64,000 nt of DNA from a virus (lineage: Duplodnaviria; Caudoviricetes). The translations under genes and the position numbers were made by a program. The notes beneath the pieces were generated by a model that searched no databases, was not told where the DNA came from, and saw nothing but the letters and a program-made list of their open reading frames with translations. Within the stretch, counting starts at the first letter, position 1; every line of letters begins with the position of its first letter. This document shows, in pieces, positions 1-51,702 of this stretch. The stretch is from positions 56,951 through 120,950 of the IMG/VR virus record IMGVR_UViG_3300042306_000967; one strand, given 5' to 3'.

Positions 1-984
1 ATCTGCGGTTTCGTTTGTTGGTACGTTTGGTAAAACTAAACCATCAGTATCTACTATTGCAGATAGTGTTCTATTAGTAGCCCCATTAGCGTATGTATAA
101 AATGCTGCTCTACTTCCTGCTCCAGATGTTGAATAGTTTTCAGTAGCTTGAAATTCTAAACTTGTTGGAACTCCACCTACTATTGGAAAATAACTACTTG
201 TTGAATATCCTAATCCAGAAAAACGAGCTAATACATCTCCCGATAAAGTTGGTGTTGGTAATGCCGCCGTTCCTCTAGCATGTCTACCTACGAAGATAGC
301 ACCAATAGAAGAACCAAATCCATCTACAGTTACCCTTGCCGCCTGTCCATCGTTTCCCGTAACGTGAACCATACCACTCGGATTGATAACCGGTTGATAT
401 GCTCCGGATTCATTACCTATAATACTAAATGCACCAATATCCCCAGCAGGAATATTAGGTACTCTGATTTTGGTTCTTGCATCTTCAGAAATTTCAAATG
501 ATATAAATGAACCACTTTTTAATTGAAAACCTGCTGCCTGAATTGATACATTACCATCCGTATTTGATATTCTTGCGTTTCTTCCACCAATTACATCCGG
601 TGCTATATTAATAGATGCCGATTGTAAGAATATATCTCTAAACGGTCTTTCTAAAGTTCCTAATGTTGCACCTTGTGGATATAGTGGAACTAAATCTCCA
701 CCAAACTCCGTTGAACCACTAATTGAAATCGAACCACTTAATTCAGTTCTACCTACTAATGTATTATTACCAATTTGGACAGTTGAACCACTTACAAATA
801 ATGAACCCGTTGTTGTTACTGCTCCAATTATATTCTGAACACCTGTAAAATTATTTCCGCCATTAAGTACGGCATATCCACTTAAATCTTGCTCTCTACC
901 TCTTACACCGGCAGTTGAGACAGATACGTTAGTGGGTTTTGTGACAACACTAATCCTTGTTTTATTTATATTAGGAATACTCAT
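1..984 (-). CDS. Tail fibre / virion beta-rich protein, 3'-truncated by the window edge (not in ORF track)
   Basis: ATG at 984 just after the stop of the 986..1369 gene. Manual translation begins MSIPNINKTRISVVTKPTNVSVSTAGVRGREQDLSGYAVLNGGNNFTGVQNIIGAVTTTGSLFVSGSTVQIGNNTLVGRTELSGSISISGS. Gly/Ser/Thr beta-strand repeats are typical of fibres; the frame appears open to position 1. Confidence 0.65.
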   Translation of the reverse strand, partial: MSIPNINKTRISVVTKPTNVSVSTAGVRGREQDLSGYAVLNGGNNFTGVQNIIGAVTTTGSLFVSGSTVQIGNNTLVGRTELSGSISISGSTEFGGDLVPLYPQGATLGTLERPFRDIFLQSASINIAPDVIGGRNARISNTDGNVSIQAAGFQLKSGSFISFEISEDARTKIRVPNIPAGDIGAFSIIGNESGAYQPVINPSGMVHVTGNDGQAARVTVDGFGSSIGAIFVGRHARGTAALPTPTLSGDVLARFSGLGYSTSSYFPIVGGVPTSLEFQATENYSTSGAGSRAAFYTYANGATNRTLSAIVDTDGLVLPNVPTNETAD

Positions 985-985
985 T

Positions 986-1369
986 CTATCGTGTTACATT
1001 TTTGGATAAACGAACTTTACCCTCTAATAATCTATATACTTCACAACCACTTACTACTTCTAAATCATAATATGCTTCATTAAAATTTAATAATGAAGAT
1101 GATGCAGCAGATACATAAACACCTATTGAACCCGAAGATAATGGATTTGTTCCACTACTTCCACTTAAATTCAATCCCGTACCACAACTATCGGAAAGTG
1201 ATGATGAAAGATTTAGAAATATTTCAGAAGATTCAACGGCGGGTCTTACTTGCATTCTTGCGTGCATACCTGTTAAATCTATTGGATTACCAGTATCATC
1301 TGTCCAATCTAATTGAAACTCTAATGTTGCTCCCTGTTCTATTACAAATGAATATTTTGCTGCTGCCAT
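986..1369 (-). CDS. Small virion structural protein (BppU-like / Ig-like adaptor)
   Basis: IEQGAT...W.D..G.PIDLTG..ARMQVR...YYDLEV...RLLEGKV pattern of phage fibre-anchor domains; late-type motif 23 nt upstream. Confidence 0.6.
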   Translation of the reverse strand: MAAAKYSFVIEQGATLEFQLDWTDDTGNPIDLTGMHARMQVRPAVESSEIFLNLSSSLSDSCGTGLNLSGSSGTNPLSSGSIGVYVSAASSSLLNFNEAYYDLEVVSGCEVYRLLEGKVRLSKNVTR

Positions 1370-1423
1370 ATAAAAATCGGTTTAATACAACTATAAATAT
1401 AAAGTTTCTTTAAAGGGGTAAAA

Positions 1424-1461: not shown

Positions 1462-1489
1462 ATGAATCGTTAGTTAGATTACATTAAGA

Positions 1490-3145
1490 TTAGATATTAG
1501 CTAAATCTTTGATGTAAATCTTACCATAGAATTCTGGACGAACCATCTTCTTAGCGTAACGAGTCATCACACCTCTACGCGGAGTAAAGTTTTGTGGGTC
1601 GTACACTAATGGAGTCATAATCAATGGTACATATGGAGCGTAAACAGCACCAGTCTCAAGGAAGTTATTTCCTCTGAAGCCCATTAAGATTTCGTTAGAA
1701 GTCATGTAAGGGTTTTTGTACACAGTGAATCTGTTGCTCATAGAACCAACTGCAGTTACACCAGCTGCGAATTGTAAAGCGTCTTTATCAGCGTTTACAG
1801 TAAAGCCAGGAATTGATTCTAAAATAGTACATACATCAGGAGATGCAACTACGAAGTTAGCACCACCACGAAGTGTTAATTGGTGAATCTTGTTAGAAAC
1901 TTTGTTCAACTTAACACCTAATGTTTGATACCAAGAATTCTTAGTATAGTAAGTGTTTGCTCCAGAAGGAACTGAAGAACCCCATGCACCTTGACCAGTT
2001 GCACCGTTGTTTAAGTATTCTTCACCAATTGTTGCTGACCAGTATTCAGTAGTTAATGCGTTAGCTTTTAACATATCTAAAATTTCTAAATCAATCTCTA
2101 AAGAGATGTAATCAGATAACATAGAAGTTAATTCAGCTTCTGCATCAATTGAATGATAAGCGTTTAAGTCTTGCGCTAATTCAGGAGTCCATACTGCTTT
2201 CAACTTACGAGTCTTAGCAACGATAGCCTCTGATTTTAATTCAAGATCAATTTCAGGAATATCTAATGCAGTTGTTGTGTTACCTGCACTGTTAGCTGTT
2301 TGGTCTTCGAAGTCACCTCTATCGTAAGATACTGGTTGCTCAGAATAAACAACAGTTGAAGTAGAGATTGTTACACCGTTAGATGCAGAAACAAACAATA
2401 CTACGTTGTTAGAAGATACATAGTTAAATTCGTTGATGTTTGAATTTAAAGTACCAGCACCGATAGCAGTAACGTTGAATGAACGAACTGCTTCAGAATC
2501 AACAGTTGTAGGAAGTTGGTTTGCACCACCTGCTTTAGAAACTGTTAATTTGATGATTCTACCAGCTGCTACTGAAGCAGAGATTGAAGCGTCAAATCCT
2601 ACATCAGCCCAAGAAGCTGTAGCTGCAGTTGTAGTTAAAGAAGCTGCAGATGCATCGTTTACAGAGTAGCCATATCTAGCTTCACCATAAAGACCATTTT
2701 CAGCTGCATTAGTTCTACCAAAGTTAGTTGCAGAACCAGTTACGTTAGTACCACCAAAAAGTGATTTACCAGCGAACTGACCGTTAGCACCTTGAGAAGA
2801 ACCATATTTGAAATCCAAGAAGAATACAAGACCAGAAGGTAAGTTCATTGGTTGTACGCTTACGAATTCTTTTGCTGCGATTTCACCGAAGATTCTTCTT
2901 ACTAACGGTAAAGCCACACCAGACCACTCTTCAGAACCAGTAGAAGTACCAGTTTGAGTTGCCTCATCAAGCAATTGCTTTGCTTGGTTTTCTAACAATA
3001 CAGCCATGCTGTGTTGTTCTCTTTCTTTTAAACCTTCAAGAAGACCAGTTTTTTCCCATTTGCTTTTTAACTGACGAGTTTCAGCTAACATTACTGCTTG
3101 TGGGTTTTTGCCTTCCATAAGTTTTCCTAAATCAAAATTTGCCAT
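1490..3145 (-). CDS. gp23: Major capsid protein (T4 gp23 family)
   Basis: LPLVRR..., VSVQPM..PSGLVF, AKTRKLKAVWTPELAQDLNAYHSIDAEAELTSMLS, YAPYVPL...DPQNFTPRRGVMTRYA; N-terminal LLDE|A maturation-like site. Confidence 0.97.
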   Translation of the reverse strand: MANFDLGKLMEGKNPQAVMLAETRQLKSKWEKTGLLEGLKEREQHSMAVLLENQAKQLLDEATQTGTSTGSEEWSGVALPLVRRIFGEIAAKEFVSVQPMNLPSGLVFFLDFKYGSSQGANGQFAGKSLFGGTNVTGSATNFGRTNAAENGLYGEARYGYSVNDASAASLTTTAATASWADVGFDASISASVAAGRIIKLTVSKAGGANQLPTTVDSEAVRSFNVTAIGAGTLNSNINEFNYVSSNNVVLFVSASNGVTISTSTVVYSEQPVSYDRGDFEDQTANSAGNTTTALDIPEIDLELKSEAIVAKTRKLKAVWTPELAQDLNAYHSIDAEAELTSMLSDYISLEIDLEILDMLKANALTTEYWSATIGEEYLNNGATGQGAWGSSVPSGANTYYTKNSWYQTLGVKLNKVSNKIHQLTLRGGANFVVASPDVCTILESIPGFTVNADKDALQFAAGVTAVGSMSNRFTVYKNPYMTSNEILMGFRGNNFLETGAVYAPYVPLIMTPLVYDPQNFTPRRGVMTRYAKKMVRPEFYGKIYIKDLANI

Positions 3146-3170
3146 TTTATTTTATTTTTTTATGGATTGT

Positions 3171-4479: not shown

Positions 4480-5799
4480 TTAGAAAAGATAAATATAAGA
4501 TGGGTGTTTATCATCTTTTAGTTTTTGACGGATTCTTTCATCCGAACACCCAAAATGTTCTCCAGCCTCTTTAAGAGAGCAGAATTGAATTCCTTCACAC
4601 TCAATTATTGGAAGGTGTATTTTTATTTTTGAACGTAATTGTAATTCGTTCATTTCATCGTAACTGATATCATTACGTTCAACTTTTTTCCAATGACGAT
4701 ATACTGGATTATTTGATTCAAAGTAGTTTCTAGCTTCCGATTCTGATATTCCTAATTTATCCGCCACCTGTTTTGGGTTCTCAAAAGGAACTCCATCTAT
4801 TTCGTATTTAATTGTTGGATTAGTTTCTTCACCAATGATTTGCCAATCTTTGTATTTTGATTTAGTAGAACGGCATCTTCTCTCAACTTCACTTGCCACC
4901 AATTCATTTGGACTAATATCAATTGCAGCTTCTCTAAAACTTCTATAAGATTTACCATCAACCACACATTTAAACGTATCACCGTTTACAATAGATTCGG
5001 TTGCAATATCAGGATTGCCTTTTACGAATACCAATATGTTTTGATGAACCGATGCCACTTTGCGATTTCTTTCAAAGTATGTATCAACAACTCTTGATGC
5101 TTGGTGTTGTGAATTAAATAGAATCATATCGTTGTAGAAATGTAATCCAGCTTCTTCACATGCTCTAATTGTTTTCCAGACCAAACCTTTATACTTTCCA
5201 ATCTTATAATTTCCTGTGGTTGATTGTTCTCTTACTTCCGATACAACTACTGCAAAGAAACGATTATCTTTTAGTTTTTCCGCTGCTTTTCTTAAAATAG
5301 AATAATATTTTTTATCAAATGAATCTTCATCCATATTTGAAAGGTCAGCTGGGTTGTCTGTATATTTTTCTAAATCATAATAAGGTGGACAAGTAAATAC
5401 AAAGTCCTGAGTCTTATTCTGAATAGAATCTATTACCCACTCACTATCTCCTTGTATCCAATTTGGTTTTGATGATTGTTTTTTATTTGCTTCTATTTGT
5501 TCATCCGAAAGGTCTATACCATTATAGATGTATCCCATTTCAGTTGCAACTATACCTCTAACACTACCACCTGCAAATGGGTCCAATACTCTACCTTCCT
5601 CTGGACAAAACCATTCATACATCTTTTCACAAAGTGTAGCATCAAATATGGAAACGGTATTATCTTCCCAAAAACGGGCTCTACTTTGGGTATTTTCTCT
5701 ACCCAATTCTGATTGGATATTGTAGGTGTTAATCCACCATCTTTTACGTTCTTGCCATTGTTTAGAACGAGTATCTAAAATAGAGAAAGGTTTAATCAT
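4480..5799 (-). CDS. DNA amino-methyltransferase (N6A/N4C type) fused to C-terminal NUMOD1/IENR-like HTH repeats
   Basis: Motif I VLDPFAGGSVRG, motif IV FTCPPYY; C-terminal repeats VVDGKSYRSFREAA, EIDGVPFENPKQVADKLGIS, ECEGIQFCSLKEAGEHFGCS. Start moved to MIKPF (5799) because the promoter overlaps the longer start. Confidence 0.8.
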   Translation of the reverse strand: MIKPFSILDTRSKQWQERKRWWINTYNIQSELGRENTQSRARFWEDNTVSIFDATLCEKMYEWFCPEEGRVLDPFAGGSVRGIVATEMGYIYNGIDLSDEQIEANKKQSSKPNWIQGDSEWVIDSIQNKTQDFVFTCPPYYDLEKYTDNPADLSNMDEDSFDKKYYSILRKAAEKLKDNRFFAVVVSEVREQSTTGNYKIGKYKGLVWKTIRACEEAGLHFYNDMILFNSQHQASRVVDTYFERNRKVASVHQNILVFVKGNPDIATESIVNGDTFKCVVDGKSYRSFREAAIDISPNELVASEVERRCRSTKSKYKDWQIIGEETNPTIKYEIDGVPFENPKQVADKLGISESEARNYFESNNPVYRHWKKVERNDISYDEMNELQLRSKIKIHLPIIECEGIQFCSLKEAGEHFGCSDERIRQKLKDDKHPSYIYLF

Positions 5800-5803
5800 A
5801 ACA

Positions 5804-5835
5804 CAAATATACAAAAAAAGTTTGGAATTACCAAA
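5804..5835 (-). promoter_or_regulatory. Bacteroidota sigmaA-type promoter (-33 TTTG, -7 TATATTTG)
   Basis: TTTG (5832-5835), 20-nt spacer, TATATTTG (5804-5811); matches the known TTTG-N19-21-TAnnTTTG consensus. Confidence 0.75.
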
Positions 5836-5839
5836 CTTT
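5812..5839 (-). terminator. Terminator hairpin overlapping the methyltransferase promoter
   Basis: AAAGTTTGG-TAATT-CCAAACTTT followed by a T run on the minus strand, just after the stop at 5852. Confidence 0.6.
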
Positions 5840-5851
5840 CTTTATACTTTT

Positions 5852-6763
5852 TTATTCGAAATCAGGACTTTGTTCTACGTCCTTATATAAATTATCAATA
5901 TATTTTCTTTCTATATCTGCCAAATTTCTTCTATACATTTCCAATTGATTAGTTCCCTTTTTCAAAAGTGGCATCATAGCTTCCTTTTTCTTTGGGTTCT
6001 TTTCAGCAAAGTATTTAGCACCCATAGCTCTTTGTGCATCTTCCAATTCTCTAACTTTCTTTTGTACCGCTAAGTATTTTACATACATTTTAGGTACACC
6101 ACCATATAAACCAGCTTCATTTACTACTCCTTCCGGTACACAATTTGGAACTTGTCTACCACCCTTATTTTTCATACCAACTTGCTTATATCCTTTCCAA
6201 CAAGGTGAATCTTCTTTTATTGACTCACTTTTAACAACTTTACCTTTTTGTTTAAAAAGTTGTTTGATATTATCTTGTGCAGTTGAGTCATTATTTTTCC
6301 ACTTTTTAATTAAATCAAATAATTTTTTTTCATCAGAACTATTCAATGAAGCAATTTTACCTCTACCACTTCCTAGTGCCATACCATTTTTGTACCAGTA
6401 TTCAAAATCTTTTACATCATCAAATAACCAAGTTGGTAAAACTCTTATATTAAATGCTTCGTTTACCGATTCGTTTGTTCCGTATTCGTGATAGTTTCCA
6501 GCTGCTTGAGAAATATAGTTTTCTGCTTTAGAAATATGGTCTTGAATCCAAGCTGGTATTTCTTTTTCATTCTCACCCATTTTAGCTTTCAATTCAGTTG
6601 CCATCTTAATAATGGTATCTAATTGATTTTGTCCCATAGAAACTTCGTGGTCTTCACCTTCAGCTTCTTTAATGAATGCAGTTGCAAATGGATTAGAAAT
6701 TACTTTACCCATTTCAAATTTACCAAATGCTTTTTGATTTACTAATCCACCTAACTTAATCAT
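5852..6763 (-). CDS. Modular head-associated (internal) protein
   Basis: Located in the head operon; MIKL start; short modules (DHEVSM...PAWIQDHISKA; CWKGYKQVGMK.KGGRQVPNCV) separated by IKE|, VNE| sites. Confidence 0.55.
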   Translation of the reverse strand: MIKLGGLVNQKAFGKFEMGKVISNPFATAFIKEAEGEDHEVSMGQNQLDTIIKMATELKAKMGENEKEIPAWIQDHISKAENYISQAAGNYHEYGTNESVNEAFNIRVLPTWLFDDVKDFEYWYKNGMALGSGRGKIASLNSSDEKKLFDLIKKWKNNDSTAQDNIKQLFKQKGKVVKSESIKEDSPCWKGYKQVGMKNKGGRQVPNCVPEGVVNEAGLYGGVPKMYVKYLAVQKKVRELEDAQRAMGAKYFAEKNPKKKEAMMPLLKKGTNQLEMYRRNLADIERKYIDNLYKDVEQSPDFE

Positions 6764-6765
6764 AA

Positions 6766-7323
6766 TTATTTCTTTTTCATTGCAAGTCTTTCTCTCATTA
6801 CATCAGTTGGGATATCAGAGATTTCATAGTAACGATTTAAGATGTGACCCATATCTTCATATAAAGCATGTAATCTTTCATCCATTGCTTTTGCTTCAAC
6901 AGAGAACTTATCAAATTGCTTACCCAACTTATCCAACTCACTCATATTTCTTTTTACAGTTTGAGCGTCAAACCAATCGTTAGCTTCTCTTAAAGATAAT
7001 TCTTTTGCAGCTTCAACAATTGCTCCTAATGTTTCTGAAACTTCAGTCATATCTGAATTACGTTTCATTTGGTCTTGGAAAGTATTGTATGTAGATATAA
7101 TTTCTAAAAAGTGTTTTTTAACTTCTAAAGATAATTTTCTATCAGGTTGTTCTAAATTCTCCTTAATAGAAAATTTACCATCCTTAATCTTTACTTCGTT
7201 AATTGCAGTTTTACGGATATCATTGTATCCTTTAGCTATTTTATTTACCCCTTTAGGTTGTTCCACATTCAACTTAAATTTGTTGTTGTGTACATAATCA
7301 TATATGTCGAAATTCTTGCTCAT
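6766..7323 (-). CDS. Conserved head-region helical protein
   Basis: 185-aa ORF tightly coupled downstream of the prohead protease. Confidence 0.55.
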   Translation of the reverse strand: MSKNFDIYDYVHNNKFKLNVEQPKGVNKIAKGYNDIRKTAINEVKIKDGKFSIKENLEQPDRKLSLEVKKHFLEIISTYNTFQDQMKRNSDMTEVSETLGAIVEAAKELSLREANDWFDAQTVKRNMSELDKLGKQFDKFSVEAKAMDERLHALYEDMGHILNRYYEISDIPTDVMRERLAMKKK

Positions 7324-7324
7324 C

Positions 7325-7918
7325 TTATGCTATTTCAGTTATTATTTCTCTCATTAGGTCTTGTGCCTTGCAGTATTCTCCACAAACATCAGTACCAATA
7401 TTTTTTAGTGGATTTACGGATTCGTTCATTGGGACCATAAATGCACCATGTGTAGACGGGTTAGAAACAAAATCCCAACCAATCAATTCAAAATCTTCTT
7501 GTACTTCTACTTTGTTTCCACTCATAGGTCTAGTTGAACCCATACCTCTTGATGAAATACCTAATAGAATTCCAGCTTTTAATAACTCTTTAAGAATGTT
7601 ACCAGATGGAGTTCCTAATATTTCAACAGTCCCACAAAGGTCATCACCTTCCCACCAAATTTCTCTGATGTTATGTGATACGTTCTTTAAGTTAATAACG
7701 GTAGAATCCGGATGGTCTAATTCACCCAATGCTCTACGTTCTTTAATGAATGTTAAGTATTTCTTAGCTTCTCTTTCTAATATAGGCTTTGGATATACTC
7801 TACCATTCTGGTTTTCAGCACCAGCTCTTTGTAAGACACCTTTAACTAGGGTTCTTCCACCTTCATCTTCTTTTATCTTACCTTCAAATAAGTGCGTTTC
7901 TATTAAGAGTCCTTTCAT
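7325..7918 (-). CDS. gp21: Prohead protease (T4 gp21 family)
   Basis: NQNGRVYP, RALGELDHP, NVSH, GISSRGMGS (catalytic Ser), DFVSNPSTHGAF. Confidence 0.95.
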   Translation of the reverse strand: MKGLLIETHLFEGKIKEDEGGRTLVKGVLQRAGAENQNGRVYPKPILEREAKKYLTFIKERRALGELDHPDSTVINLKNVSHNIREIWWEGDDLCGTVEILGTPSGNILKELLKAGILLGISSRGMGSTRPMSGNKVEVQEDFELIGWDFVSNPSTHGAFMVPMNESVNPLKNIGTDVCGEYCKAQDLMREIITEIA

Positions 7919-7932
7919 ATTACTTTATATTC

Positions 7933-8979
7933 TTATTTAATTTTAAGAATGTTATACAAATGTAATTTTACATTCTTTCCTTCTTTATTTTTAATTACAA
8001 TTTGTTTAGTATTAGGGTCAGCAGATACAACCACTCCTTCAATTTCATCAAAGCTTTGAGAACCAGACCCTTGCCCACCATTCATTACCACGTCCATACG
8101 AACTTTTTTGCCTTTTTGTGGAAACATCTTTAAGCTGTTTTTATCGGTAGTGAATATATCTCCTTTTGAATTTGAAGGGGATATAACTTGTATTTCTACA
8201 TTTTTACTACCAACTATTTTAGATAGTCTACCAACTACTGGAGTAGATATGGTCATTCCTCTTTCGTTTTGTCCACGATTAAACCAAACCAATTCCCCTT
8301 TTGAAAAATCTTCATTTACTGATTCCATTTTACTTCTAATCTTACTAGTAATATTTCCTAATTGAGTCTTATCTAATCCTAAACCATCAACCATCTTTGC
8401 GATTAATTGAAGTTTTTGAGTTGAAGAAAGTTTTGCTGCACTAATTTTACTAATAGCAAGTTCTAATCTTTGATTGATTGCCGATGGGATTGTTGCTTTT
8501 GGTAATTCGGTTGAAATATCTTCGTTAGTTTTACCAGCTCTTAAATCTGCTAAATCATCTCCTTCAATATCACCATCACCATCAACATCTAATTTATGTT
8601 GGTCACCTTTTAATGCTTCAGTTTTTTCACCTCTACCATTCCAAGCAGAATCAACTTTATTAAAGAATGCTTTCTTTTCATCGTCTGTCATATCATTGAT
8701 ACCCTTCCCAGCTTTTTCTAAAGCTTTTTTGAAGAATGCTTGATAATCTGCTTCTTCTACCATTACTTCTTTTACAAGTTCTTTTAATCTTTCTCTTGAT
8801 ATTGTTTCTTTGTACATAGGTAATCCTTTGTGTTTTGTAGATGCATAATCTTTAGCATCTTTCTTTTTCATTGAATCTGCTGCTTTTTCAACTTCTTTAG
8901 ATGGTGCTTCCATGTCTCCTTTTTGTACTGCATGGACCATACCCATAAATCTTTGCTGTGCTTTTGATTGTGCTGGCAT
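7933..8979 (-). CDS. Modular head-associated protein (DUF3008-like N-terminus, EF-hand-like loop, beta-barrel/SH3-like C-terminus)
   Basis: MPAQSKAQQRFMGMV...ASTKHKGLP; DVDGDGDIEGDDL Ca-binding-like loop; KTE|, TNE|, VNE| junctions. Confidence 0.55.
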   Translation of the reverse strand: MPAQSKAQQRFMGMVHAVQKGDMEAPSKEVEKAADSMKKKDAKDYASTKHKGLPMYKETISRERLKELVKEVMVEEADYQAFFKKALEKAGKGINDMTDDEKKAFFNKVDSAWNGRGEKTEALKGDQHKLDVDGDGDIEGDDLADLRAGKTNEDISTELPKATIPSAINQRLELAISKISAAKLSSTQKLQLIAKMVDGLGLDKTQLGNITSKIRSKMESVNEDFSKGELVWFNRGQNERGMTISTPVVGRLSKIVGSKNVEIQVISPSNSKGDIFTTDKNSLKMFPQKGKKVRMDVVMNGGQGSGSQSFDEIEGVVVSADPNTKQIVIKNKEGKNVKLHLYNILKIK

Positions 8980-25315: not shown

Positions 25316-25346
25316 AACCTTTATCAATAAATATTAAAATATATGC

Positions 25347-39359: not shown

Positions 39360-39773
39360 CTATTGATTTATTATATCCCTACGGAAGAACTTTCCCATAA
39401 GGTTTTCGTTTATTGCTTGTTCGTTGGCAAGTACATCGTAATGAAACTGCCATTTAATTTCGTAATATGATAATGATTTCTTTGAGAAACAAAACTGAAT
39501 AATCTCTCTTTCAAAATCACCAGCGTTTCCAGCTTTAACTTCCGATTTAATCCATTCGTTTGATGAATAGTATTTCTCCCAATCAGATGCTTTCTTTACA
39601 ACCCTTCTACGAGTCTTTCCTTTAAGGGGTTTTAATCTTCTGGTTTGAGATAGAGATTTTTTACCTATATAGAATCTACCGGTTGGGGTATGTATCATTT
39701 TATAGACAAACCCAACCGCACCTTCAGGTGTGGTTTCTTCTGTAACAATATTTCCATTAAATTTCCAAGACAT
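39360..39773 (-). CDS. GIY-YIG family endonuclease
   Basis: GFVYKM...RFYIGKK, SDWEKYYSSN, FEREI, conserved E and N. Confidence 0.8.
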   Translation of the reverse strand: MSWKFNGNIVTEETTPEGAVGFVYKMIHTPTGRFYIGKKSLSQTRRLKPLKGKTRRRVVKKASDWEKYYSSNEWIKSEVKAGNAGDFEREIIQFCFSKKSLSYYEIKWQFHYDVLANEQAINENLMGKFFRRDIINQ

Positions 39774-43059: not shown

Positions 43060-46000
43060 TTAATCTACAATAAGTATCGGTTCACCACTACCTCTACCGG
43101 TATTTGCAACTTTAAGAACATTTGGATTAGTTGTAAATATTTCTAATGGAGATAATCCATCTGGTGTAGTTGATGCGTTTTGTTGAGAACCTTTCCAAAA
43201 TGAACGTTTCATACCCTCACTAAGTCCATTAACATATCGGTAATGTGTTGGTAGATATCCATTTACAGCCGTCACTTCGGTTACACTTCCACCCACATCT
43301 ACACTTCCGCTAAAAGGTAATACTGTAACTTTGTATTTGTTATTCGTAACCAATACATTCTCATACTTAACTCTTTGTCCTGGTATGTTTGTTGCCGGCC
43401 ATCCTTCAGTTTGTGTTGATACTTTTGTATCATATTGTTCTTTTACCAAGAATACACTCTTTCTATCGCCACCATTTACCGATGAGGTAATATGTGTAGT
43501 AATATAATTTCCAAATACACCATCGAATCCAGGTATAATTGCGTTACCATTTCTAGCATACAATCCAAACCCAACATTTGCCAACGAATCTCTTTCCATT
43601 CCAATTGCTTGGAATTTAAACGAATCAACCTCACCAGTCAATGTTGAACCGGTAGGTATTTGTAATGAAAATTCATACATAGGTACACTACCACTAATCA
43701 CTGTGTCCTGTAAATATTCAATTAATGTATCGTAGTATGCCGGATTTGCATTTAAATCGTAAACCGTAACCGCATCCAATGTACCATCATAATCAGGTCT
43801 TTCCACCGAAAGTACCGTATTACTAATTGCGTTGAGTTCAGTTTCTTTTGGTATAAAATCACTTTCTAATGCAATATCATCATTTGTAGAAATAGATGTA
43901 TCATATGAATTTTTCTCTGCAATTGTTTCTTTCCATCTTGTTTTACTTCTCTCTAATAAGTGAGGTTCAATCAACAATCCTTTTGAAACTTTTGCTCTAG
44001 CAGGTGCTAGTTCAGCAAGAACATCAAATAATGATTTATCTATATATCTTACAAGTTGAATGTACTCATTTATATTTTGATTCATTCTTTCAAAATAGTA
44101 CTCTCTCAACGTTTCTAATTCACTATATGTATCTTTATACTCATCACGTGGGTCTCCTATGTAATTATCAATATTAAAATCACCAAACGTTTTTAAGATG
44201 TCCATATTCAACTCCTTAATTGGAGAGAAGAATAATCCCAAACGATTTGAATCTATTGGAGATTGGTCAAATGCTTTTTTAGTTGCTCTTGTTTTGTATG
44301 ATAAATCGGTAACTAATGAAGCAGATTCAAATCTTATTTTATTTGAATAACCAAAACCTAAAGACGGTACTTCTGCCGTTACAGTTCTATCATACGGAGT
44401 ATATTGATACGGATAAACGGTAGCAGTGTACATCTGACTTGCAGTAGCGTAAGAATTTGCACCATCATAACTTTGATTGATTGCCACATTCTTAATATAC
44501 GGGTCTGCATTTCTATCCTTTGGATATTCAAAATCAAGTCTAAATAATAAATCTTCAGTAGATGCTGTATATGAATTACCATTTGTTGCATCAGGAAATA
44601 AAACGTGATTATTAAATTTACTTCTTTGTAATGGAACTTTCCACAAACGAACTTCATCTACGTTTCCTGTAAATGTGTTACTACCAATTTGTAAATGCGA
44701 ACCACTACTCCATTGTGTATCCGGTGCAAAAATAGACATACTAACCGATGTAATAATTCTGTCACCATTAGATGTTCCCAACCAAACTTCATACCAAGAA
44801 CCAGTTCCTGCACTATTATATCTGTTGATTGCTACATTTGAATAATATTCGGTTGATATAGGGAAATCTAAACTACCAGTTTTATAATCAGGTCCAAACA
44901 CATATTCAATTGATGTATTGAAGTAAGGATAGTTTACACCACTAGTTTCCATATAGGTAGTTAGTGCCTGGTCTCCACCAAAATTTAATTCCAATTTACC
45001 AAATGAACCAGTTGTTTGTACTAAATCCAAAGTCCATTCGCTTCCACTAATAAGTGTTGATGTTGTATTTGGTAAAGAAGCCGGTTTAAATCTAAATTCC
45101 ACACAATTTGGATAGTCTAAACTTCCGGTAAAGAATTTCCAAGGTACTTTTACAGATGCACTTCCACTCAAATAAATTGCAGCGGTTCTATCATCAAATG
45201 TAAATTTGGTACTACCACCTTTTGATGGGTCTTGTGGTCCACCAAATTCCATTATAGTCAACATAGATTGTGGTACACCATAACAAGCCATTACAGCTTT
45301 CATAGCTCTACCAGTTCCTTTATGTTTTAAAATATATGGAAGGTTATTTAATATTCTTCTCCAAATTTCTTCATTAGCAGATTCAAGAGATTTAGAATAT
45401 TTTTGTGTACCATCTTTGTATGTACCAAACGCATATTCCCATAAAAAGTTAGAATTAAACGCCTTTTTAACATCCCATCCATGTGATTCAAGTACAAACT
45501 GAACTACATCATTTGATATTCCCTTATACTCCGAAGCTTCAACTGATTTTGTTTTTGCTAAAGAACTTATATATGACCAAAGTATATCAAAGTGTTGGCC
45601 AATCATATTCAAAAACGTAATAAAATCTTCATTAGCAGTATCTTCTACCAAAAATTCTGGTATATTTGCCGTAAGACGATTTGGGTTGTATTTGTCAAAA
45701 TATAACGCCTGGGATAATAATTCATCATACCACATCGTAACTAAAGAAGATGTAGTATTAATTAATATAGATGATGATGGATTTGTTTTAGGATATGCTA
45801 AATTATTTGAATTAGTATTTGTAGTATAATACAAATATTTTTCAAACCCATCCATCGCATTAATAAGTTGATTAGCTTTATTAAGCGATGTATTTGCTTC
45901 ATTTAATTCATATGGAGAAGCCGAAGCAGTTGACGTATTAGTAAAATATATATTTTTATAATATTCTACCAATCTAACTTTATATATAAAATTATCTACT

Positions 46001-48171
46001 CTTTCCGTTGCGGAACTAAAATTAATAAAATTACCAAATGTGTATTCAGACCCACTTATATATTCAATATTTAATTTTTGTGTATCAATACCAATCGTAG
46101 ATGCATATCTATTAATAACATCTACGGATGAAACGGAACCACTACCCACCAAATCATCATAAATTTGAAACTCTATACCATTATCAGGATTTAATGAAAA
46201 GTTTGGTCCTTTTAAAGTATTACAAGCGGTTTCAGTTTCACCTCTTAAACTTATTGTTTCAATTATTGGAGTTGATTGTACTTTGGAAATCCATACTAAT
46301 TGATTAGGTTGTACAGTAACTGGTAATGGTTCGTATAATTTTAATATAAGTGAATCAAAACTACCAGTCCATGTAGTAACAACTTTACTATCACCATCGC
46401 CTAAATGTAATAAATGGTTTAAGTATTTAGAAGATTCATCTCCAAAAATAGATTCATCAAATTGTGACGTAAATGCCGATGCAATTCTATTAATTGCAAG
46501 TTCTTTTGGTATTGTTAAATCACCAGCTCTAAATGTAACCGTTATTAATTCTTCTTTACCAACAATTTCTTTATTACCACTATTGTTGTACGGAACTAAT
46601 TTTAAATTTAGCTTAATAACATCATTCGGGCCAGTATAAGAACTAAATTGTAATAATTTTTGTACATTTAATGTAATTCTAGCATTTGGTCCTTCTTGAT
46701 AAAACCCTGCCGAATTATTTACAAATATTTTTACAAAATCCGTATCTCTTGATTTGTATGATATTTCAAAATCAACATCAGTACCAACGTAATCTCCACC
46801 TATTAATTCTTTTGGATATGTAATTGATTCTATATCAGGAACACCAACAAAAAATTCGTCAACAACTGAAAGTTTGAATTCAATCGGTGGCAGTTCTATA
46901 CCTGCATTTTTACCAACTAGATAAATTTTATAATTACCCAAAGAATCAAATGCAGTTTTAGGAATACTGATTACGGTTGGAGGTCTTTCAGTTTGATTTG
47001 CAACTATCCCACCTATCGCGGCACCTACCGCGTTATTTATAGTTGAGTTTATGTCAAAATTAAAAGTTTTATCCTTTACATATGCTACAATCTGATTAAT
47101 ATTATCGGTAACCAATATAATAGGATAATCTTCCTGTGAATTTCTATTGTATTTTCTATTTTCATCAGGAGTTAATAATCTTATTACAGGGTTTGAGGCC
47201 TGCTGTACGATAGTAATATTTTCACTTTCAATATCAATTACAGTATTATTGTCTACTGTATATTCTGAAAATAAAGTATCGGTATTTAATGCTTCTAATA
47301 CTCTAGGTTTTAATCCTTGAGAAGTTGCAGTTATTTTTGATATTTTATAAAGATTATTGTTTACAGAAACAATTTGTAAATTCGTACCAGTTTCTACTAT
47401 AAACGTAGTTACTTCGTTTGTAAGTTTAATATTTTCAGAAGTATTTACGTTTGTTAAATTTACAGAATTGTTTGGTCCTTTTAAATTTATTGTTACGTTA
47501 TAGGTAGAAACTTCTGGAACTATAATTTTAGCATTATCTTTTGGATTTTGCTTTTTAAGTTCAAATAACAGTTCTTTTATATCATTCGGAGAATCCGATG
47601 CATCGGTTGATACAACTTCACCATTTATAACTCTTTCAATTCTAAAAACATATGGAGTTGATTTTGTAAATATTTTTTGTTCAGGTTGTAATCCCAAAAC
47701 TCCATCATAATTTGTAATAGTATTTCTATAATTACTAAATCCATCATCAATAAAATTAGGATTTTGAACTATTGATATATTATATTGCTCGTTTGATTCA
47801 TATCCTTCTTTGGTTAATGAAATAGTTTTTGTTCCAACGCCAATTATATCTGATATTGAGAATACAAATTTAGTAGGTGTTGTTCTATATGAAGGTTGTC
47901 CATCTATGTTTACAAGACACTTATCAGCATTTGCATTAATATTAATAGCTAAAAATCCATCCTGATTAATTGTACCCGCATAATCATAATCTTTTTTTAT
48001 AGGTATGATTACATTTTCACTTTTAATAATACCAATATCGCCACCAGGCAAAATAACACCATCAACAGGACTTACATTTTCAATATTAGAAAGTAAATTC
48101 TGTCTTAATGAATCCTGACTATTTTTATTTAATTCAGAATCAAATGGTTGGTCTTGTGTAAATCTAGGCAT
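43060..48171 (-). CDS. Large baseplate wedge protein (gp7/P2 gpI-like) with LamG-like domain
   Basis: FLNMIGQHFD...RILNNLPYILKHKGT.RA.KA...CYG (gpI-like); VEFRFK...FTGNVDEVRLW (LamG-like); downstream of gp6. Confidence 0.65.
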   Translation of the reverse strand: MPRFTQDQPFDSELNKNSQDSLRQNLLSNIENVSPVDGVILPGGDIGIIKSENVIIPIKKDYDYAGTINQDGFLAININANADKCLVNIDGQPSYRTTPTKFVFSISDIIGVGTKTISLTKEGYESNEQYNISIVQNPNFIDDGFSNYRNTITNYDGVLGLQPEQKIFTKSTPYVFRIERVINGEVVSTDASDSPNDIKELLFELKKQNPKDNAKIIVPEVSTYNVTINLKGPNNSVNLTNVNTSENIKLTNEVTTFIVETGTNLQIVSVNNNLYKISKITATSQGLKPRVLEALNTDTLFSEYTVDNNTVIDIESENITIVQQASNPVIRLLTPDENRKYNRNSQEDYPIILVTDNINQIVAYVKDKTFNFDINSTINNAVGAAIGGIVANQTERPPTVISIPKTAFDSLGNYKIYLVGKNAGIELPPIEFKLSVVDEFFVGVPDIESITYPKELIGGDYVGTDVDFEISYKSRDTDFVKIFVNNSAGFYQEGPNARITLNVQKLLQFSSYTGPNDVIKLNLKLVPYNNSGNKEIVGKEELITVTFRAGDLTIPKELAINRIASAFTSQFDESIFGDESSKYLNHLLHLGDGDSKVVTTWTGSFDSLILKLYEPLPVTVQPNQLVWISKVQSTPIIETISLRGETETACNTLKGPNFSLNPDNGIEFQIYDDLVGSGSVSSVDVINRYASTIGIDTQKLNIEYISGSEYTFGNFINFSSATERVDNFIYKVRLVEYYKNIYFTNTSTASASPYELNEANTSLNKANQLINAMDGFEKYLYYTTNTNSNNLAYPKTNPSSSILINTTSSLVTMWYDELLSQALYFDKYNPNRLTANIPEFLVEDTANEDFITFLNMIGQHFDILWSYISSLAKTKSVEASEYKGISNDVVQFVLESHGWDVKKAFNSNFLWEYAFGTYKDGTQKYSKSLESANEEIWRRILNNLPYILKHKGTGRAMKAVMACYGVPQSMLTIMEFGGPQDPSKGGSTKFTFDDRTAAIYLSGSASVKVPWKFFTGSLDYPNCVEFRFKPASLPNTTSTLISGSEWTLDLVQTTGSFGKLELNFGGDQALTTYMETSGVNYPYFNTSIEYVFGPDYKTGSLDFPISTEYYSNVAINRYNSAGTGSWYEVWLGTSNGDRIITSVSMSIFAPDTQWSSGSHLQIGSNTFTGNVDEVRLWKVPLQRSKFNNHVLFPDATNGNSYTASTEDLLFRLDFEYPKDRNADPYIKNVAINQSYDGANSYATASQMYTATVYPYQYTPYDRTVTAEVPSLGFGYSNKIRFESASLVTDLSYKTRATKKAFDQSPIDSNRLGLFFSPIKELNMDILKTFGDFNIDNYIGDPRDEYKDTYSELETLREYYFERMNQNINEYIQLVRYIDKSLFDVLAELAPARAKVSKGLLIEPHLLERSKTRWKETIAEKNSYDTSISTNDDIALESDFIPKETELNAISNTVLSVERPDYDGTLDAVTVYDLNANPAYYDTLIEYLQDTVISGSVPMYEFSLQIPTGSTLTGEVDSFKFQAIGMERDSLANVGFGLYARNGNAIIPGFDGVFGNYITTHITSSVNGGDRKSVFLVKEQYDTKVSTQTEGWPATNIPGQRVKYENVLVTNNKYKVTVLPFSGSVDVGGSVTEVTAVNGYLPTHYRYVNGLSEGMKRSFWKGSQQNASTTPDGLSPLEIFTTNPNVLKVANTGRGSGEPILIVD

Positions 48172-48180
48172 CTTTTATAA

Positions 48181-49614
48181 TTATAGCTCTGATAAATTAT
48201 TCGGTGTATTATTTGTAACCATTGTTGCTGCATCCGATACATTTCCGGTGCCCATATTTCCTAAAACTACACCTCTTCCTTTAATTCCAAACATACCTCT
48301 AGCTCTCGAAGGTGTATTAACACTACCATCACCACTACCCAATAGCTTTTTAGTTAAACTTTCAGCGGGTGTAGATGGAGTATCCGTATTTTTTCTTTTT
48401 TTAAATAACTTACCAGCGTTTTGTATTTTTTCACCTTTTTTCATTCTAAGCTTCGCAAATAAACCTCTCGGCTTACCCACTTCAAATGCAGTTTCGGTTT
48501 CTAAAACAGATGGACTAGTTAATGGTAAATTCATATCGACATCTGGTAAAATAACTTGCGTTGGAGCCAATACTTCTTTTGCTTTTACTTCGGCTGTAAT
48601 TGCATTTTGTAAAACCGAAGGTATTTTTGTTTTAATAATAGTTGCCTCTTTTATTAATGGTGGATTTGTCATAATATCTAAATCCGATGTTTTTGTTTCT
48701 AAAATACGTTCCGGAGCATCATAACTTTCAAATGTATCATTAGATTTTGAACCAAATTTTACAACAGGATTCAATAAAAATTTATTTATAACCTGTATTA
48801 ATATTTTTTCACATTTGTCTTTAACGTATTCTTTTGATAATTGAATAGATTCTGGAGTATTTTTCTTCTTTCCGTAATTCAAATCATTTATATCGGAAAT
48901 TCTATTTGTAAATTCATATATCGTTGCTTCAACAAATTTGTTATACATAGTTGTTGCAAATGAATCAAATTGTTTAATCTGATATTCACTTAATAATAAA
49001 TTAAACCAACTTTCCGAAAAGTTTGTTTTTAAATAAGATGCTATATAATTTGGACTAATCTTTTCAACAAATGAAATTGCATATCTAACAACATCTTCTC
49101 TGAATGAACCGTCATTTATAAAAATACCATAACGCGTTTTTAATTCAGGATTTAATTTACTCCCTTCACTATGTGGGAACAATCTTATTTCAGTTCTGGA
49201 TGGTGATATTTCTGAAATCCATAATTTATCAAACATACCCTCACTACCCACTCTTTTATTTAATAGTGTAATTTGAATTTTAAAAATACCATTGTTATAT
49301 CCGGCCTCATTTATAAGTCTTTCCGCATCAATAAAATATTCAGTTGGAAATTGATATTTTTGAAAAATAGTTCCCTCTGCTACTAAAAAGTAATCTCTTA
49401 TATTTTCGGAAGTTAGTGGCAAATATCTTACCAATCCATAGTTTTGTTGTGGTAGTTGATTATCGTTTGCATCGTATAAAACAAATTCAATACAATCGGT
49501 TTTACTAAATCCAAAAAACGATTGTATATTACCCGATTCAAATAACATTCTATCATCGGTGTTTATACGATACCCCTTACTATCAATAATATCCTTAAAT
49601 GATTTTATTGCCAT
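48181..49614 (-). CDS. Baseplate-region structural protein
   Basis: In the baseplate operon; LWISEISPSRTEIRL conserved-looking core with a basic disordered tail. Confidence 0.5.
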   Translation of the reverse strand: MAIKSFKDIIDSKGYRINTDDRMLFESGNIQSFFGFSKTDCIEFVLYDANDNQLPQQNYGLVRYLPLTSENIRDYFLVAEGTIFQKYQFPTEYFIDAERLINEAGYNNGIFKIQITLLNKRVGSEGMFDKLWISEISPSRTEIRLFPHSEGSKLNPELKTRYGIFINDGSFREDVVRYAISFVEKISPNYIASYLKTNFSESWFNLLLSEYQIKQFDSFATTMYNKFVEATIYEFTNRISDINDLNYGKKKNTPESIQLSKEYVKDKCEKILIQVINKFLLNPVVKFGSKSNDTFESYDAPERILETKTSDLDIMTNPPLIKEATIIKTKIPSVLQNAITAEVKAKEVLAPTQVILPDVDMNLPLTSPSVLETETAFEVGKPRGLFAKLRMKKGEKIQNAGKLFKKRKNTDTPSTPAESLTKKLLGSGDGSVNTPSRARGMFGIKGRGVVLGNMGTGNVSDAATMVTNNTPNNLSEL

Positions 49615-50630
49615 TATCCTTCAAATTTATTTCCTCTTTGTTTTTGCAAACCAACCGTCAACGTTACCGTTGATGAAGTTGTTTTTGCTATAAATGAACC
49701 CTTATATAATTTATCTCTACTTGCTCCTATCGCCTTTGCAGGTACTTTATCCCTCACTGCTCCTTTATTTGGCGCAAGTATTATTACCTTTTTCGCTTTT
49801 GGTTCTAATGTGATAGAATCTACTTTTTCTAAAGTATCTCCAGTTTCTCCGGTTGATTCAAATGATATGTTTACACTTTCTGCAGAGAAATTATATACTT
49901 CCACATCTGGACCATTTATCCAAGTAACTTCACCTTTTGCATTTGCTCTTGAATTAAATAATATATCTTCACCACCTTCTTGTCCTTTTTTAAGAACTTT
50001 TAAAGATATATCCATACCAACTTTTGAACCTTCTGCCAATTTAGCATCTTTACCTTCCAATTGTTCTTTATATGCTCTATTTTGTTCTTCCAACGAAGCA
50101 ACTCTTGCCGTCAATGAAACTCTCTGAATCGCTTCCGATGTTGCTTTTTGAATAGCATTTTGTAAATCAACTATACTAGATTGGACTTTTGTTCCATATT
50201 GAAATGATTCATTCTGTGCAGTTGATGATGCTATCGTTTCTCTATCTACATCTATTCGTAAGCTTTCGGTTACAATTTCCAATTCAATAACCTTTGCTCT
50301 TAAATCATCTATTTCTTTATTTAACTGAGTTACTTCTGCAGTTAAATCGATTACGGATTGCGTTACCGGATTATAAACTCTTCTAGGTACTGTATCTTCA
50401 ACCGGTGGTGGTTCTTGTGGAATTAATTCGATAATCGTTGTATCAATTGCTCTTAATAATTCATCCTCATCATATTTTGGTTTAGTTAGTTTACCAGAAA
50501 TTACGCCGCCATCCTTGTCTTTATTTTCAAAGATATAAACACCGGTATCGGTTTTTGGTTTTAACGCCAAAGAACCACTTACAAGTATTCTGCCTACATT
50601 AACCTCATTTTTTAATCCAGTATTTTTCAT
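49614..50630 (-). CDS. Baseplate-region coiled-coil protein with C-terminal Ig-like domain
   Basis: Central heptads, beta-rich C-terminus. Confidence 0.5.
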   Translation of the reverse strand: MKNTGLKNEVNVGRILVSGSLALKPKTDTGVYIFENKDKDGGVISGKLTKPKYDEDELLRAIDTTIIELIPQEPPPVEDTVPRRVYNPVTQSVIDLTAEVTQLNKEIDDLRAKVIELEIVTESLRIDVDRETIASSTAQNESFQYGTKVQSSIVDLQNAIQKATSEAIQRVSLTARVASLEEQNRAYKEQLEGKDAKLAEGSKVGMDISLKVLKKGQEGGEDILFNSRANAKGEVTWINGPDVEVYNFSAESVNISFESTGETGDTLEKVDSITLEPKAKKVIILAPNKGAVRDKVPAKAIGASRDKLYKGSFIAKTTSSTVTLTVGLQKQRGNKFEG

Positions 50631-50631
50631 A

Positions 50632-51702
50632 CTAATTATTTTCTAAACTAAACGTTATATTTTCATCAAAAAATTGAACATCACCGTTGTGTTCAACCTT
50701 AAATTCTAATTTATAAATTCTATTTGGTTGCCAATTTGAAAAATTAACTTTGATATAATTACCAGTTTCATCACAACTAATTTTTGAATAATTTCCAAAT
50801 GGAATTATAACATCATCTGATGCCGCATCTTTTATTTGATAATATGATGATGTTGGTAAATATTCAGCCGTATTGTAAGCAAACGAATTAGTAAATGTTT
50901 TTAATGGATACAAATCTCTAGCAAATATTCTTATTTTTGCAGTTGAATTAACTTTGTATTTGTTTTTAAAATTAAAAACATTAACTTTTATATCATTCGC
51001 CGTCAATGGATTTAATTGGCCTGTTACATATGATTGGTCATCCCATCCTATTCTTACTTTTGGCTGGTGTATTGTATTTGTTTCTTTACTAAAGAATTTA
51101 AGTATTCCATAATCTTCAGTATCATCTTCAACCGAATTATTGTATTTAATTATAAATCCATTATTTTGTACAGAACCACTTAACCAGCTTTTTAATGATT
51201 CTTTAACATCCATATTAATATCAGCGGTTTGATAATTAAATGATTGACTTGCTGCGTTTGCAGTGTACCAAACACCACCTCTACCTTCATATGAACCAGT
51301 ACTACCCGCCGAAAATTGTCCAGATGGTAACCACTCTAAATTAGAATCACCTTCTCTATAATCCCAAGTTACACCCTGTGTAGATACCTCATCAAAACGA
51401 GTGCCCTTTCCCATTTGCCAACTTCCCGAAATCATATAAGCGTAAACTGTGTATTCTAAAGGAATTTCTTCGCTTTCGGTTTGTCTCAAAACAAGTGTAG
51501 CGTTTTCTAATTTCATGCTGCCATTTGATAATGAAGATGAAAGATGTGAAATATCAAATCTTATTAATATTCTGGATAAATCTTTTATATTTCCATAATA
51601 TACTTTACTTATTTCCAATATCTCATCCAATCCAGTATTTTGAAATGGTTGTTGAATATACACCGATGCATCTTTTGATGCTGTTAAAAAATAGTATGCC
51701 AT
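50632..51702 (-). CDS. Baseplate-region protein with DNRLRE/CBM96-like domain
   Basis: ASKDASVY...NTG.DEILEI...SRILIRFD...A.LVL...W..G...TW...MDV...W...NNGFIIK...F.SKE...P. Confidence 0.55.
   Translation of the reverse strand: MAYYFLTASKDASVYIQQPFQNTGLDEILEISKVYYGNIKDLSRILIRFDISHLSSSLSNGSMKLENATLVLRQTESEEIPLEYTVYAYMISGSWQMGKGTRFDEVSTQGVTWDYREGDSNLEWLPSGQFSAGSTGSYEGRGGVWYTANAASQSFNYQTADINMDVKESLKSWLSGSVQNNGFIIKYNNSVEDDTEDYGILKFFSKETNTIHQPKVRIGWDDQSYVTGQLNPLTANDIKVNVFNFKNKYKVNSTAKIRIFARDLYPLKTFTNSFAYNTAEYLPTSSYYQIKDAASDDVIIPFGNYSKISCDETGNYIKVNFSNWQPNRIYKLEFKVEHNGDVQFFDENITFSLENN

Follow-up and report, generated by a model that had tools for sequence, protein, structure and literature searches.

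Why should one short tripeptide, [ST][GASQ]S, recur through unrelated proteins of a phage virion, and what, if anything, reads it? The question is raised by a 64,000-nucleotide (nt) stretch of the IMG/VR virus record IMGVR_UViG_3300042306_000967 (Duplodnaviria; Caudoviricetes; positions 56,951 to 120,950), hereafter the window, in which every gene lies on the minus strand. This window covers the structural half of a large T4-like myophage, and the portal and large terminase encoded there are 50-58% identical to their counterparts in Microcystis phage Mel-JY01 and Flavobacterium phage immuto. The original prediction, made by a model from the letters alone, held that this tripeptide crowds the outer virion proteins because it is a glycosylation sequon, read by the phage's own TibC-like heptosyltransferase. 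Our analysis indicated that the motif is real, is specific to one clade of phages and is under selection as a surface motif. Its best explanation would be that it serves as a modification sequon, O-glycosylation being the most plausible kind, and to this we give a little less than an even chance; a glycosyltransferase cassette found across the clade is a better candidate for the reader than the TibC-like enzyme.

The motif proved dense in the outer virion proteins, more strongly than had been described. Sites were counted in each protein and compared with the mean of 1000 composition-preserving shuffles of that protein. The heaviest carrier is a giant tail fibre of 2601 amino acids (aa; 26951-34756, minus strand, as are all window features below), which carries a C-terminal Peptidase_S74 intramolecular chaperone domain (PF13884, residues 2449-2479) and has 52 sites where 15.8 were expected (z 9.2; 0 of 1000 shuffles as high), in keeping with the earlier count by eye of about 50. 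Next is a 1703-aa baseplate-associated giant protein (43060-48171), called a wedge in the original prediction and without a Pfam or PHROG family match, with 22 sites against 6.0 (z 6.8). Smaller carriers are a 356-aa baseplate protein that adjoins the gp6-like wedge protein of the window (50632-51702; 7 sites against 1.6, z 4.3), a 403-aa tail or baseplate protein (41146-42357; 6 against 1.8, p 0.013), a 317-aa tail protein (40116-41069; 9 against 1.1, z 7.6), a 127-aa protein of phrog_1084 (986-1369; 4 against 1.4, p 0.047), and a fibre-like protein built of TGS/SGS beta-strand modules, whose N-terminal 328 aa are present before it runs off the left end of the window (1-984; 7 against 2.5, p 0.001). 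Pooled over these seven proteins (5835 aa), 107 sites were found against 29.8 expected, and 0 of 400 shuffles reached that number.

The remaining proteins of the window differ from these seven. The large terminase (0 sites against 1.0), the portal (0 against 0.6), the primase (0 against 0.3) and an Mre11-Rad50 fusion protein (2 against 1.3) lie near expectation or below it, as the original prediction had proposed. Nine other virion or morphogenesis proteins together have 10 sites against 8.8, and the 30 proteins left over have 12 against 14.1; both groups were pooled without a poly-Ser 482-aa protein and a Thr-rich 529-aa protein. The gp23-type major capsid protein (1490-3145; PF07068, E 4e-75) is an intermediate case. 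Its 5 sites against 2.3 are not a significant excess when taken alone (p 0.071), and all five fall within the variable central region (residues 69-253), which we infer to be exposed on the surface. The capsid protein of Mel-JY01 has 5 sites and that of immuto 3, with none in gp23 or gp24 of T4.

Two controls that had been proposed along with the motif, shuffling and permuted tripeptides, both upheld it. When residues were shuffled only within 8-residue windows, the seven outer proteins still showed a 3-fold enrichment (107 against 35.4; 0 of 400 as high). Among all tripeptides in these proteins, SGS (28 against 4.7) and TGS (22 against 4.5) rank first and second, and permutations of the same residues stay at expectation (GSS 4, SSG 4, SGT 8, GST 8, GTS 8, STG 4, TSG 7). 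The four members with Gly or Ala in the middle also exceed the first-order expectation from dipeptides by 2.1-fold (75 against 35.9); with Gln in the middle, the raw counts give a weak signal (TQS 5 against 2.1, SQS 4 against 2.5). The windowed shuffles and the permuted tripeptides rule out local composition or low complexity as the cause. A cause at the level of DNA can likewise be ruled out: the motif is encoded by many codon combinations that draw on both Ser codon families, and the signal therefore lies in the protein. Self-BLAST revealed no internal repeats in the 2601-aa fibre or the 1703-aa protein. One further protein with a high count, of 482 aa (61360-62808) and outside the range that the original prediction covered, was set aside as a motif carrier, its count being an artefact of a Ser/Gly/Pro/Ala low-complexity linker of about 60 residues that includes poly-Ser.

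Related phages carry the same signal. In totals over all open reading frames (ORFs), taken without selection, the window has 91 sites against 35.6, Mel-JY01 189 against 84.0 and immuto (80-160 kb) 163 against 63.4. The third position is specific for Ser in all three genomes: [ST]GS is enriched 4.1- to 7.3-fold (window 4.8- to 5.8-fold, Mel-JY01 5.9- to 7.3-fold, immuto 4.1- to 4.6-fold) and [ST]GT only 0.9- to 1.9-fold, with the Mel-JY01 and immuto protein sets for this comparison and for the permutations picked by position and annotation after the motif table for each ORF had been inspected. Metagenomic relatives extend the clade. G018 has a 276-kb genome, rated 100% complete, that shares synteny with the window (terminase TerL 75% identical, portal 70%, capsid protein 68%, gp6-like protein 57%), G001 is a 136-kb relative rated 67% complete, and further relatives are represented by the partial contigs G009, G010 and G011. 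The orthologues of the 1703-aa protein in Mel-JY01, immuto, G001 and G018 are likewise enriched, and some of the sites in the 356-aa protein keep their positions across the window, Mel-JY01 and immuto. When the left-edge 328-aa protein and a 508-aa fibre protein of Mel-JY01 were searched by tblastn against GenBank phages, each gave no match or matches in the same clade only, in searches whose low-complexity filter may hide more.

Beyond this clade the motif fades. In T4, 12 baseplate and fibre proteins hold 11 sites of the four Gly/Ala members against 15.7, and the counts for other myoviruses are 13 against 14.3 (cyanophage S-SSM4), 8 against 8.6 (Vibrio phage QD01) and 22 against 15.0 (Rhizobium phage RHph_Y65). 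These four phages rule out a generic property of phage fibres. A nearer comparison is offered by the uncultured 484-kb phage LR756508, which shares 36.5% identity with the window over the full length of the gp6-like protein. Its orthologues of the 356-aa, 1703-aa, 403-aa and 317-aa proteins have 0 sites against 0.4, 4 against 1.3, 3 against 0.7 and 0 against 0.2, respectively, and the 14 ORFs downstream of its gp6-like gene total 10 against 5.2, with Thr-third tripeptides at 7 against 3.3. As these orthologues are not enriched, their folds do not need the motif.

Within the clade the motif is conserved beyond what its residues would lead one to expect. The giant fibre was aligned with 38 distinct homologues from viral metagenome contigs, at about 50% identity. 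Conservation of the third-position Ser was 0.656, compared with 0.406 for other Ser (Mann-Whitney p 1e-4), and that of the first position 0.61, compared with 0.40 for other Thr. The middle residue, at 0.495, fell below other Gly (0.62) and is exchanged among G, A, S, Q, R and T, which supports the wider middle position of the motif as it was first defined. Nine fibre sites are retained in at least 94% of the homologues; the other sites turn over while their density is kept.

These patterns bear on a rather unlikely alternative, that the motif is an unmodified structural element. In this alternative, the fibre shafts and beta-sandwich surfaces of the clade would consist of short hydrophobic-[ST]-small-S-hydrophobic strand/turn units whose two hydroxyls cap backbone groups or bridge them; shared domain types would have carried the motif along, and folding constraints alone would keep it. 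Hydrophobic residues are indeed enriched at positions -1 (0.46) and +3 (0.47) over a background of 0.32, and in immuto F and Y at +3 are enriched 5.4- and 3.5-fold. Together with the several sites that are invariant in the 38 homologues and the occurrence of the motif within recurring fibre modules of relatives, these flanks keep the structural alternative a serious one, and it would also account for a motif that is maintained with or without a TibC-like gene. Against it stand the LR756508 orthologues, which fold without the motif, and the four other myovirus lineages that lack it. The middle residue is the least constrained of the three and accepts Q and R, a poor fit to a packed small residue, and the carriers have unrelated folds, with no internal repeats in the two largest.

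A structural model also favored no particular setting for the motif. An AlphaFold (AF2) model of fibre residues 180-900, built from a 34-sequence alignment, resembles arrays of beta-sandwiches (ephrin-receptor ectodomains, CBM22, MAM and a phage baseplate protein), with low TM-scores, and showed no resemblance to a beta-helix. At the 22 sites in the modeled region, the third-position Ser lies in a loop in 10 cases, at a strand edge in 7 and within a strand in 5, compared with background frequencies of 44%, 33% and 20%. In this model of moderate confidence, the sites thus appear to have no preferred class of secondary structure, a point against the structural alternative.

The motif is order-specific, with a Ser-specific end and a free middle; its conservation is selective, it occurs in unrelated proteins and it is missing from the orthologues of an outgroup. 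These properties argue for a trans-acting factor rather than a folding need. The same order-specific tripeptide is found in folds as unrelated as the fibre, the 1703-aa protein and the small baseplate proteins, as well as in the sheath and capsid proteins of relatives. Over-representation, order, restriction to outer proteins, conserved fixed positions and a free middle are general traits of a sequon. We therefore favor, at the tentative level stated above, a mechanism in which [ST]-x-S (x mostly G, A or S, the neighbors often hydrophobic) would be a recognition motif, acquired and kept by unrelated outer virion proteins of one large aquatic T4-like phage clade. Its carriers would be the variable central region of the capsid protein, the sheath, the peripheral baseplate proteins and the fibres. 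The reader would be an enzyme of the phage itself that modifies proteins at the third-position Ser, with an O-glycosyltransferase as the most plausible kind, and the outcome would be a glycan coat over the exposed surface of the virion.

Candidates for such an enzyme are found among the structural genes themselves, in a sugar cluster between the fibre gene and the terminase gene, where a TibC-like gene, a 722-aa enzyme and HldE-type genes stand beside the fibre. The 385-aa protein at 19634-20791 is a genuine member of the TibC/Aah family of protein O-heptosyltransferases, and heptosyl transfer from ADP-heptose, together with the dodecameric ring of that family, is predicted for it. It scores 272 bits (cut-off 200, residues 22-383 covered) against TIGR04414, the NCBIfam equivalog for autotransporter strand-loop-strand O-heptosyltransferases, and matches TibC in the Protein Data Bank (PDB 4RAP chain A) with E 9.4e-54 over residues 43-377. 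The TibC study, in its available excerpts, gives Asp-110 as the catalytic base and Thr-226, Lys-230, Arg-286 and Trp-305 as the sugar-binding residues (PMC4358343). Equivalents of Asp-110, Thr-226, Lys-230 and Trp-305, and of the four iron-finger Cys, are invariant in all 61 distinct phage homologues; the equivalent of Arg-286 is Val in 60 of the 61, and that of Pro-300 is Gly in every one. Adjoining the gene are the two halves of a split HldE, a heptose-7-phosphate kinase domain (18506-19261; TIGR02198, E 6e-26) and a heptose-1-phosphate adenylyltransferase domain (19245-19634; TIGR02199, E 2e-27), each below its equivalog cut-off. The claim that the phage encodes its own TibC-like transferase is well supported by these matches.

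The 722-aa multidomain enzyme (20782-22950) combines a GT1 domain with a methyltransferase domain and weakly matches GT25. Its gene and the start of the TibC-like gene share 10 nt, and in Mel-JY01 (4750-8430) the equivalents of the two are one 1226-aa protein annotated "methyltransferase FkbM." Between these transferase genes and the fibre gene sit a 669-aa radical SAM/SPASM protein (23318-25327), the N-terminal 340 residues of which have no assignment, and the Thr-rich 529-aa protein (25347-26936). The latter is 31% Thr, with long poly-Thr and TTTTTTEAP-type mucin-like linkers that separate small Cys-containing domains; with 0 motif sites against 4.8 expected, it would be a candidate for dense O-glycosylation of a different kind. 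Across 80 loci related to the TibC-like locus, the 722-aa gene is paired with the TibC-like gene in 77, and a fibre gene lies upstream in 56; in many of the others the flank stops short of the fibre position. The HldE kinase is present in 26 of these loci, the adenylyltransferase in 36, the radical SAM gene in 2 and the Thr-rich gene in 3. A TibC-like gene occurs in only four of 50,697 GenBank phage records, those of Mel-JY01 and of three huge uncultured phages, and relatives in viral metagenome contigs number 261. A full-text literature search found no paper on a phage-encoded enzyme of the TibC/Aah type, and a phage-borne protein heptosyltransferase of this type appears not to be in print yet.

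Is this enzyme the reader? It now seems very unlikely that the TibC-like heptosyltransferase takes the motif as its acceptor sequon and places heptose on these Ser across the whole virion. The idea has the family membership and invariant residues in its favor, as well as the adjoining genes for ADP-heptose synthesis and the fibre gene next door in 56 of 80 loci; the excerpted TibC study also describes an enzyme that modifies Ser only (PMC4358343), and the motif is Ser-specific at its third position. When co-occurrence was examined across relatives, as the original prediction had suggested, the motif was found to be independent of the gene. There is no TibC and no GT9 domain in the whole 160-kb record of immuto, and the same Ser-specific motif is present in its baseplate and fibre proteins (53 sites against 12.2 in one tail spike). 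TibC is likewise missing from five immuto-like contigs, of which three are at least 93% complete. The orthologues in four such TibC-less contigs (G004-G007) keep similar site numbers to immuto, and motif Ser are selectively conserved in them (0.821, compared with 0.614 for other Ser; p 0.008).

The partial contigs and the complete relative agree. G009 and G010 gave no TibC match and G011 only a partial match of 31.9 bits, far below the 200-bit cut-off; all three are motif-rich, with Thr-third tripeptides at expectation. G018 has no TibC in its 276 kb, and its orthologues hold 6 sites against 0.9 (356-aa protein), 23 against 3.6 (1703-aa protein), 7 against 2.2 (403-aa protein) and 27 against 7.9 (fibre). 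The motif is equally rich in relatives that have no credible TibC, an outcome that the original prediction had itself named as refuting, and the TibC-like enzyme is therefore not supported as its reader.

The character of the sites leads to the same conclusion. As far as the excerpts of the TibC study go, the mapped acceptors in TibA are Ser in N-S-G-G and T-S-A-A, that is, Ser before G-G or A-A and after N or T, with Thr unused (PMC4358343), and [ST]-x-S is unlike these. Nor is a strand-loop-strand context apparent: in the moderate-confidence fibre model, sites are spread over loop, strand edge and strand much as the background is, and the region models as a beta-sandwich rather than a beta-helix. 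Val in place of Arg-286 in 60 of 61 phage homologues also counts against TibC as the reader. No Ser-specific motif-rich protein was found within 20 kb on either side of TibC in the unrelated huge phages LR756504 and LR756501, although these neighborhoods are uninformative because the structural genes may lie elsewhere. Of the proposal that a phage glycosyltransferase reads the sequon, the identification of TibC is not supported, and what stands is a genuine motif in which residue order matters and which is limited to the outer virion proteins. In the phage of the window, the TibC-like enzyme may instead form a lineage-specific addition together with the 722-aa protein and the split HldE, and this set may still heptosylate the adjacent giant fibre, at motif Ser or elsewhere.

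By distribution, the best-fitting reader would be a conserved cassette of GT-B and GT-A glycosyltransferases. Mel-JY01 and immuto share it in synteny at 37-43% identity (immuto 49172-50614, 50617-51927 and 52406-53029; Mel-JY01 84024-86972), and its members are the relatives of immuto gp181, gp180 and gp178. A 998-aa NadR-like neighbor has, in Pfam, a cytidylyltransferase-like domain and DUF5661 only. Among GenBank phages, no gp180-like transferase was found beyond Mel-JY01 and immuto, and viral contigs contain 258 relatives. The gene is present in Mel-JY01, immuto, G009-G011, G014, G017 and G018; of the motif-rich genomes for which the relevant part could be examined, 7 of 7 have it. At a credible score it was found in none of the five motif-poor phages LR756508, T4, S-SSM4, QD01 and RHph_Y65.

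For the phage of the window, the evidence on the cassette comes from relatives. G014, a 207-kb contig, spans the part of the genome that is missing from G001, and where the two overlap their proteins are 65-90% identical; the single-strand-binding proteins of G014 and G017 are 81% and 84% identical to that of G001. The cassette in these two close relatives of G001 is the reason for placing it in the phage of the window as well, which from such sequence comparison probably has both systems, the TibC-like set and the cassette, as does Mel-JY01. In G014 the cassette occurs together with an HldE kinase homologue (110539-111291), and heptose may be used by the cassette system too. HldE homologues were also observed beside a gp180-like cassette at L180 (10502-11977); between them, these TibC-less contigs have homologues of the HldE adenylyltransferase and of the kinase next to the cassette.

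A reader other than a glycosyltransferase is the least likely of the explanations that we weighed. Another Ser modification (phosphorylation, acylation or radical-SAM chemistry), a chaperone of assembly, or a weak affinity of the hydroxyl pair for host or environmental polysaccharide would leave the same trans-acting signature as a glycosylation sequon; a radical SAM/SPASM enzyme is present in the cluster, and no enzyme is directly seen in every motif-rich sequence. That gene, on the other hand, occurs in only 2 of the 80 related loci, no clade-conserved kinase or acyltransferase was noticed in the BLAST tables, and the conspicuous clade-specific enzymes are glycosyltransferases.

Several observations weigh against a glycosylation sequon read by the cassette. 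All motif-rich genomes form one clade, and the match between cassette and motif is for this reason weak evidence, a single evolutionary event rather than a correlation. Neither the window (64 kb) nor G001 (136 kb, 67% complete) yielded the cassette. A gp180-like search of G001 and two shorter TibC-bearing contigs, with completeness of 67%, 32% and 29%, gave 0 of 3, and none of 80 gp180-like loci matches genes of the window's clade at high identity. The cassette enzymes have generic GT1 or GT2 matches or none in Pfam and PDB, with no solved relative, and their substrates could instead be DNA, lipid or polysaccharide. On the side of the motif, the invariance of some fibre sites across all 38 homologues fits a structural role too, and the recurring fibre modules of immuto, Mel-JY01 and G001 (FTGSF, SGSxKFGD, TASY runs) have the motif embedded in them. 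The fibre model is moderate only, with a mean predicted local distance difference test score (pLDDT) of 65.5 and a predicted TM-score (pTM) of 0.28. In the giant collagen-like proteins of G014, Thr-third tripeptides are enriched as much as Ser-third ones. Non-structural proteins show no consistent avoidance of the motif: an apparent deficit of [ST][GA]S in the window (3 against 7.7) was dropped as a finding, as relatives do not share it, with observed/expected ratios of 0.97 in Mel-JY01, 0.78 in immuto and 1.23 in G001, and T4 is as low at 0.64. Finally, that the motif is modified, by which enzyme and with which sugar are all deductions from sequence.

With these points counted, the fuller version of the glycosylation reading is possible, and we hold it with some reserve. 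It describes a clade with hosts from Flavobacterium to Microcystis whose virions would wear an O-glycan coat templated by [ST]-x-S, a sequon that would have arisen convergently in their outer proteins and would be read by the cassette. Some lineages, that of the window included, would add a heptose layer by way of a captured heptosyltransferase of the autotransporter type.

Other genes of the window and its relatives add context. A prohead protease and a primase are encoded in the window, as is the fusion of Mre11-type phosphoesterase and Rad50-type ATPase domains in a 1048-aa ORF (35010-38156), with homologues of equal length in Mel-JY01, G001 and G018. Also found were a DNA methylase with a weak C-terminal match to sigma-70 region 4 (4480-5814) and a SegE-like GIY-YIG endonuclease (39360-39773). 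The head and sheath genes of G001 are separated by three giant ORFs (64109-104167; 3058, 4539 and 4717 aa), which contain collagen-like GSSGSS runs together with FTGSF and GDGSxLTNI modules. The same contig has a second sugar-modifying cluster (118201-125926) with two DUF6734 proteins, a GT25 transferase, an O-carbamoyltransferase and a 2OG-Fe(II) oxygenase; in cyanophage S-SSM4 a carbamoyltransferase gene directly follows the capsid gene. At the starts of G001 (1-2412) and G014 (1-2271) is an ORF with CarboxypepD_reg, Plug and outer-membrane beta-barrel domains, of the TonB-dependent receptor type and 65% identical between the two. It may point to a host among the Bacteroidota or to a receptor gene carried by the phage.

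Should the motif prove to be a site of modification, tailed phages would have their first known short sequon for glycosylation of the whole virion, and this would show that phages can evolve a glycan coat as enveloped viruses do. Consequences could be expected for adsorption, stability, stickiness to particles and host recognition, and a function would be provided for glycosylation gene sets that have many relatives in viral contigs (261 TibC-like and 258 gp180-like). Two motif-rich phages are in culture, Mel-JY01 with a TibC-like gene and immuto without one, making the question directly testable. Even if the motif is purely structural, a clade-specific tripeptide that ranks above all others in outer virion proteins is a useful marker and would still need an explanation.

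Known systems resemble this one in different respects. To TibC/Aah the 385-aa protein is related by sequence, catalytic base, three of the four sugar-binding residues and iron-finger Cys, and TibC, in the excerpts of its description, is Ser-specific and hyperglycosylates a large surface protein encoded beside it (PMC4358343). The differences are that the neighbor here is a beta-sandwich phage fibre, not a beta-helical autotransporter passenger such as TibA or AIDA-I, that the phage subfamily has Val for Arg-286 and Gly for Pro-300, and that the presence of the phage motif is independent of the enzyme from genome to genome. In the G001 giant proteins, the FxGDGSxLTNI-type module weakly matches the Chlorovirus glycoprotein repeat PF06598 (E 1.3e-4), a lead only, at 22.4 bits below the 27-bit cut-off and in a relative rather than in the window. 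Virion glycosylation in mycobacteriophages offers a likeness of another kind, as phage-encoded transferases there decorate exposed virion proteins (capsid and tail tube subunits); the sugars reportedly sit on C-terminal extensions of two proteins rather than on a short sequon spread over many, and hosts and enzymes are said to be unrelated. Short sequons proper include N-x-S/T for N-glycans and the S-[AVT]-S repeats modified by GtfA/GtfB in Gram-positive adhesins. The acceptor in the phages described here would differ in being a Ser within folded beta-rich proteins made in the bacterial cytoplasm, and the likeness lies in a signal of three residues with fixed outer positions and a free middle, which is gained and lost while its density is kept.

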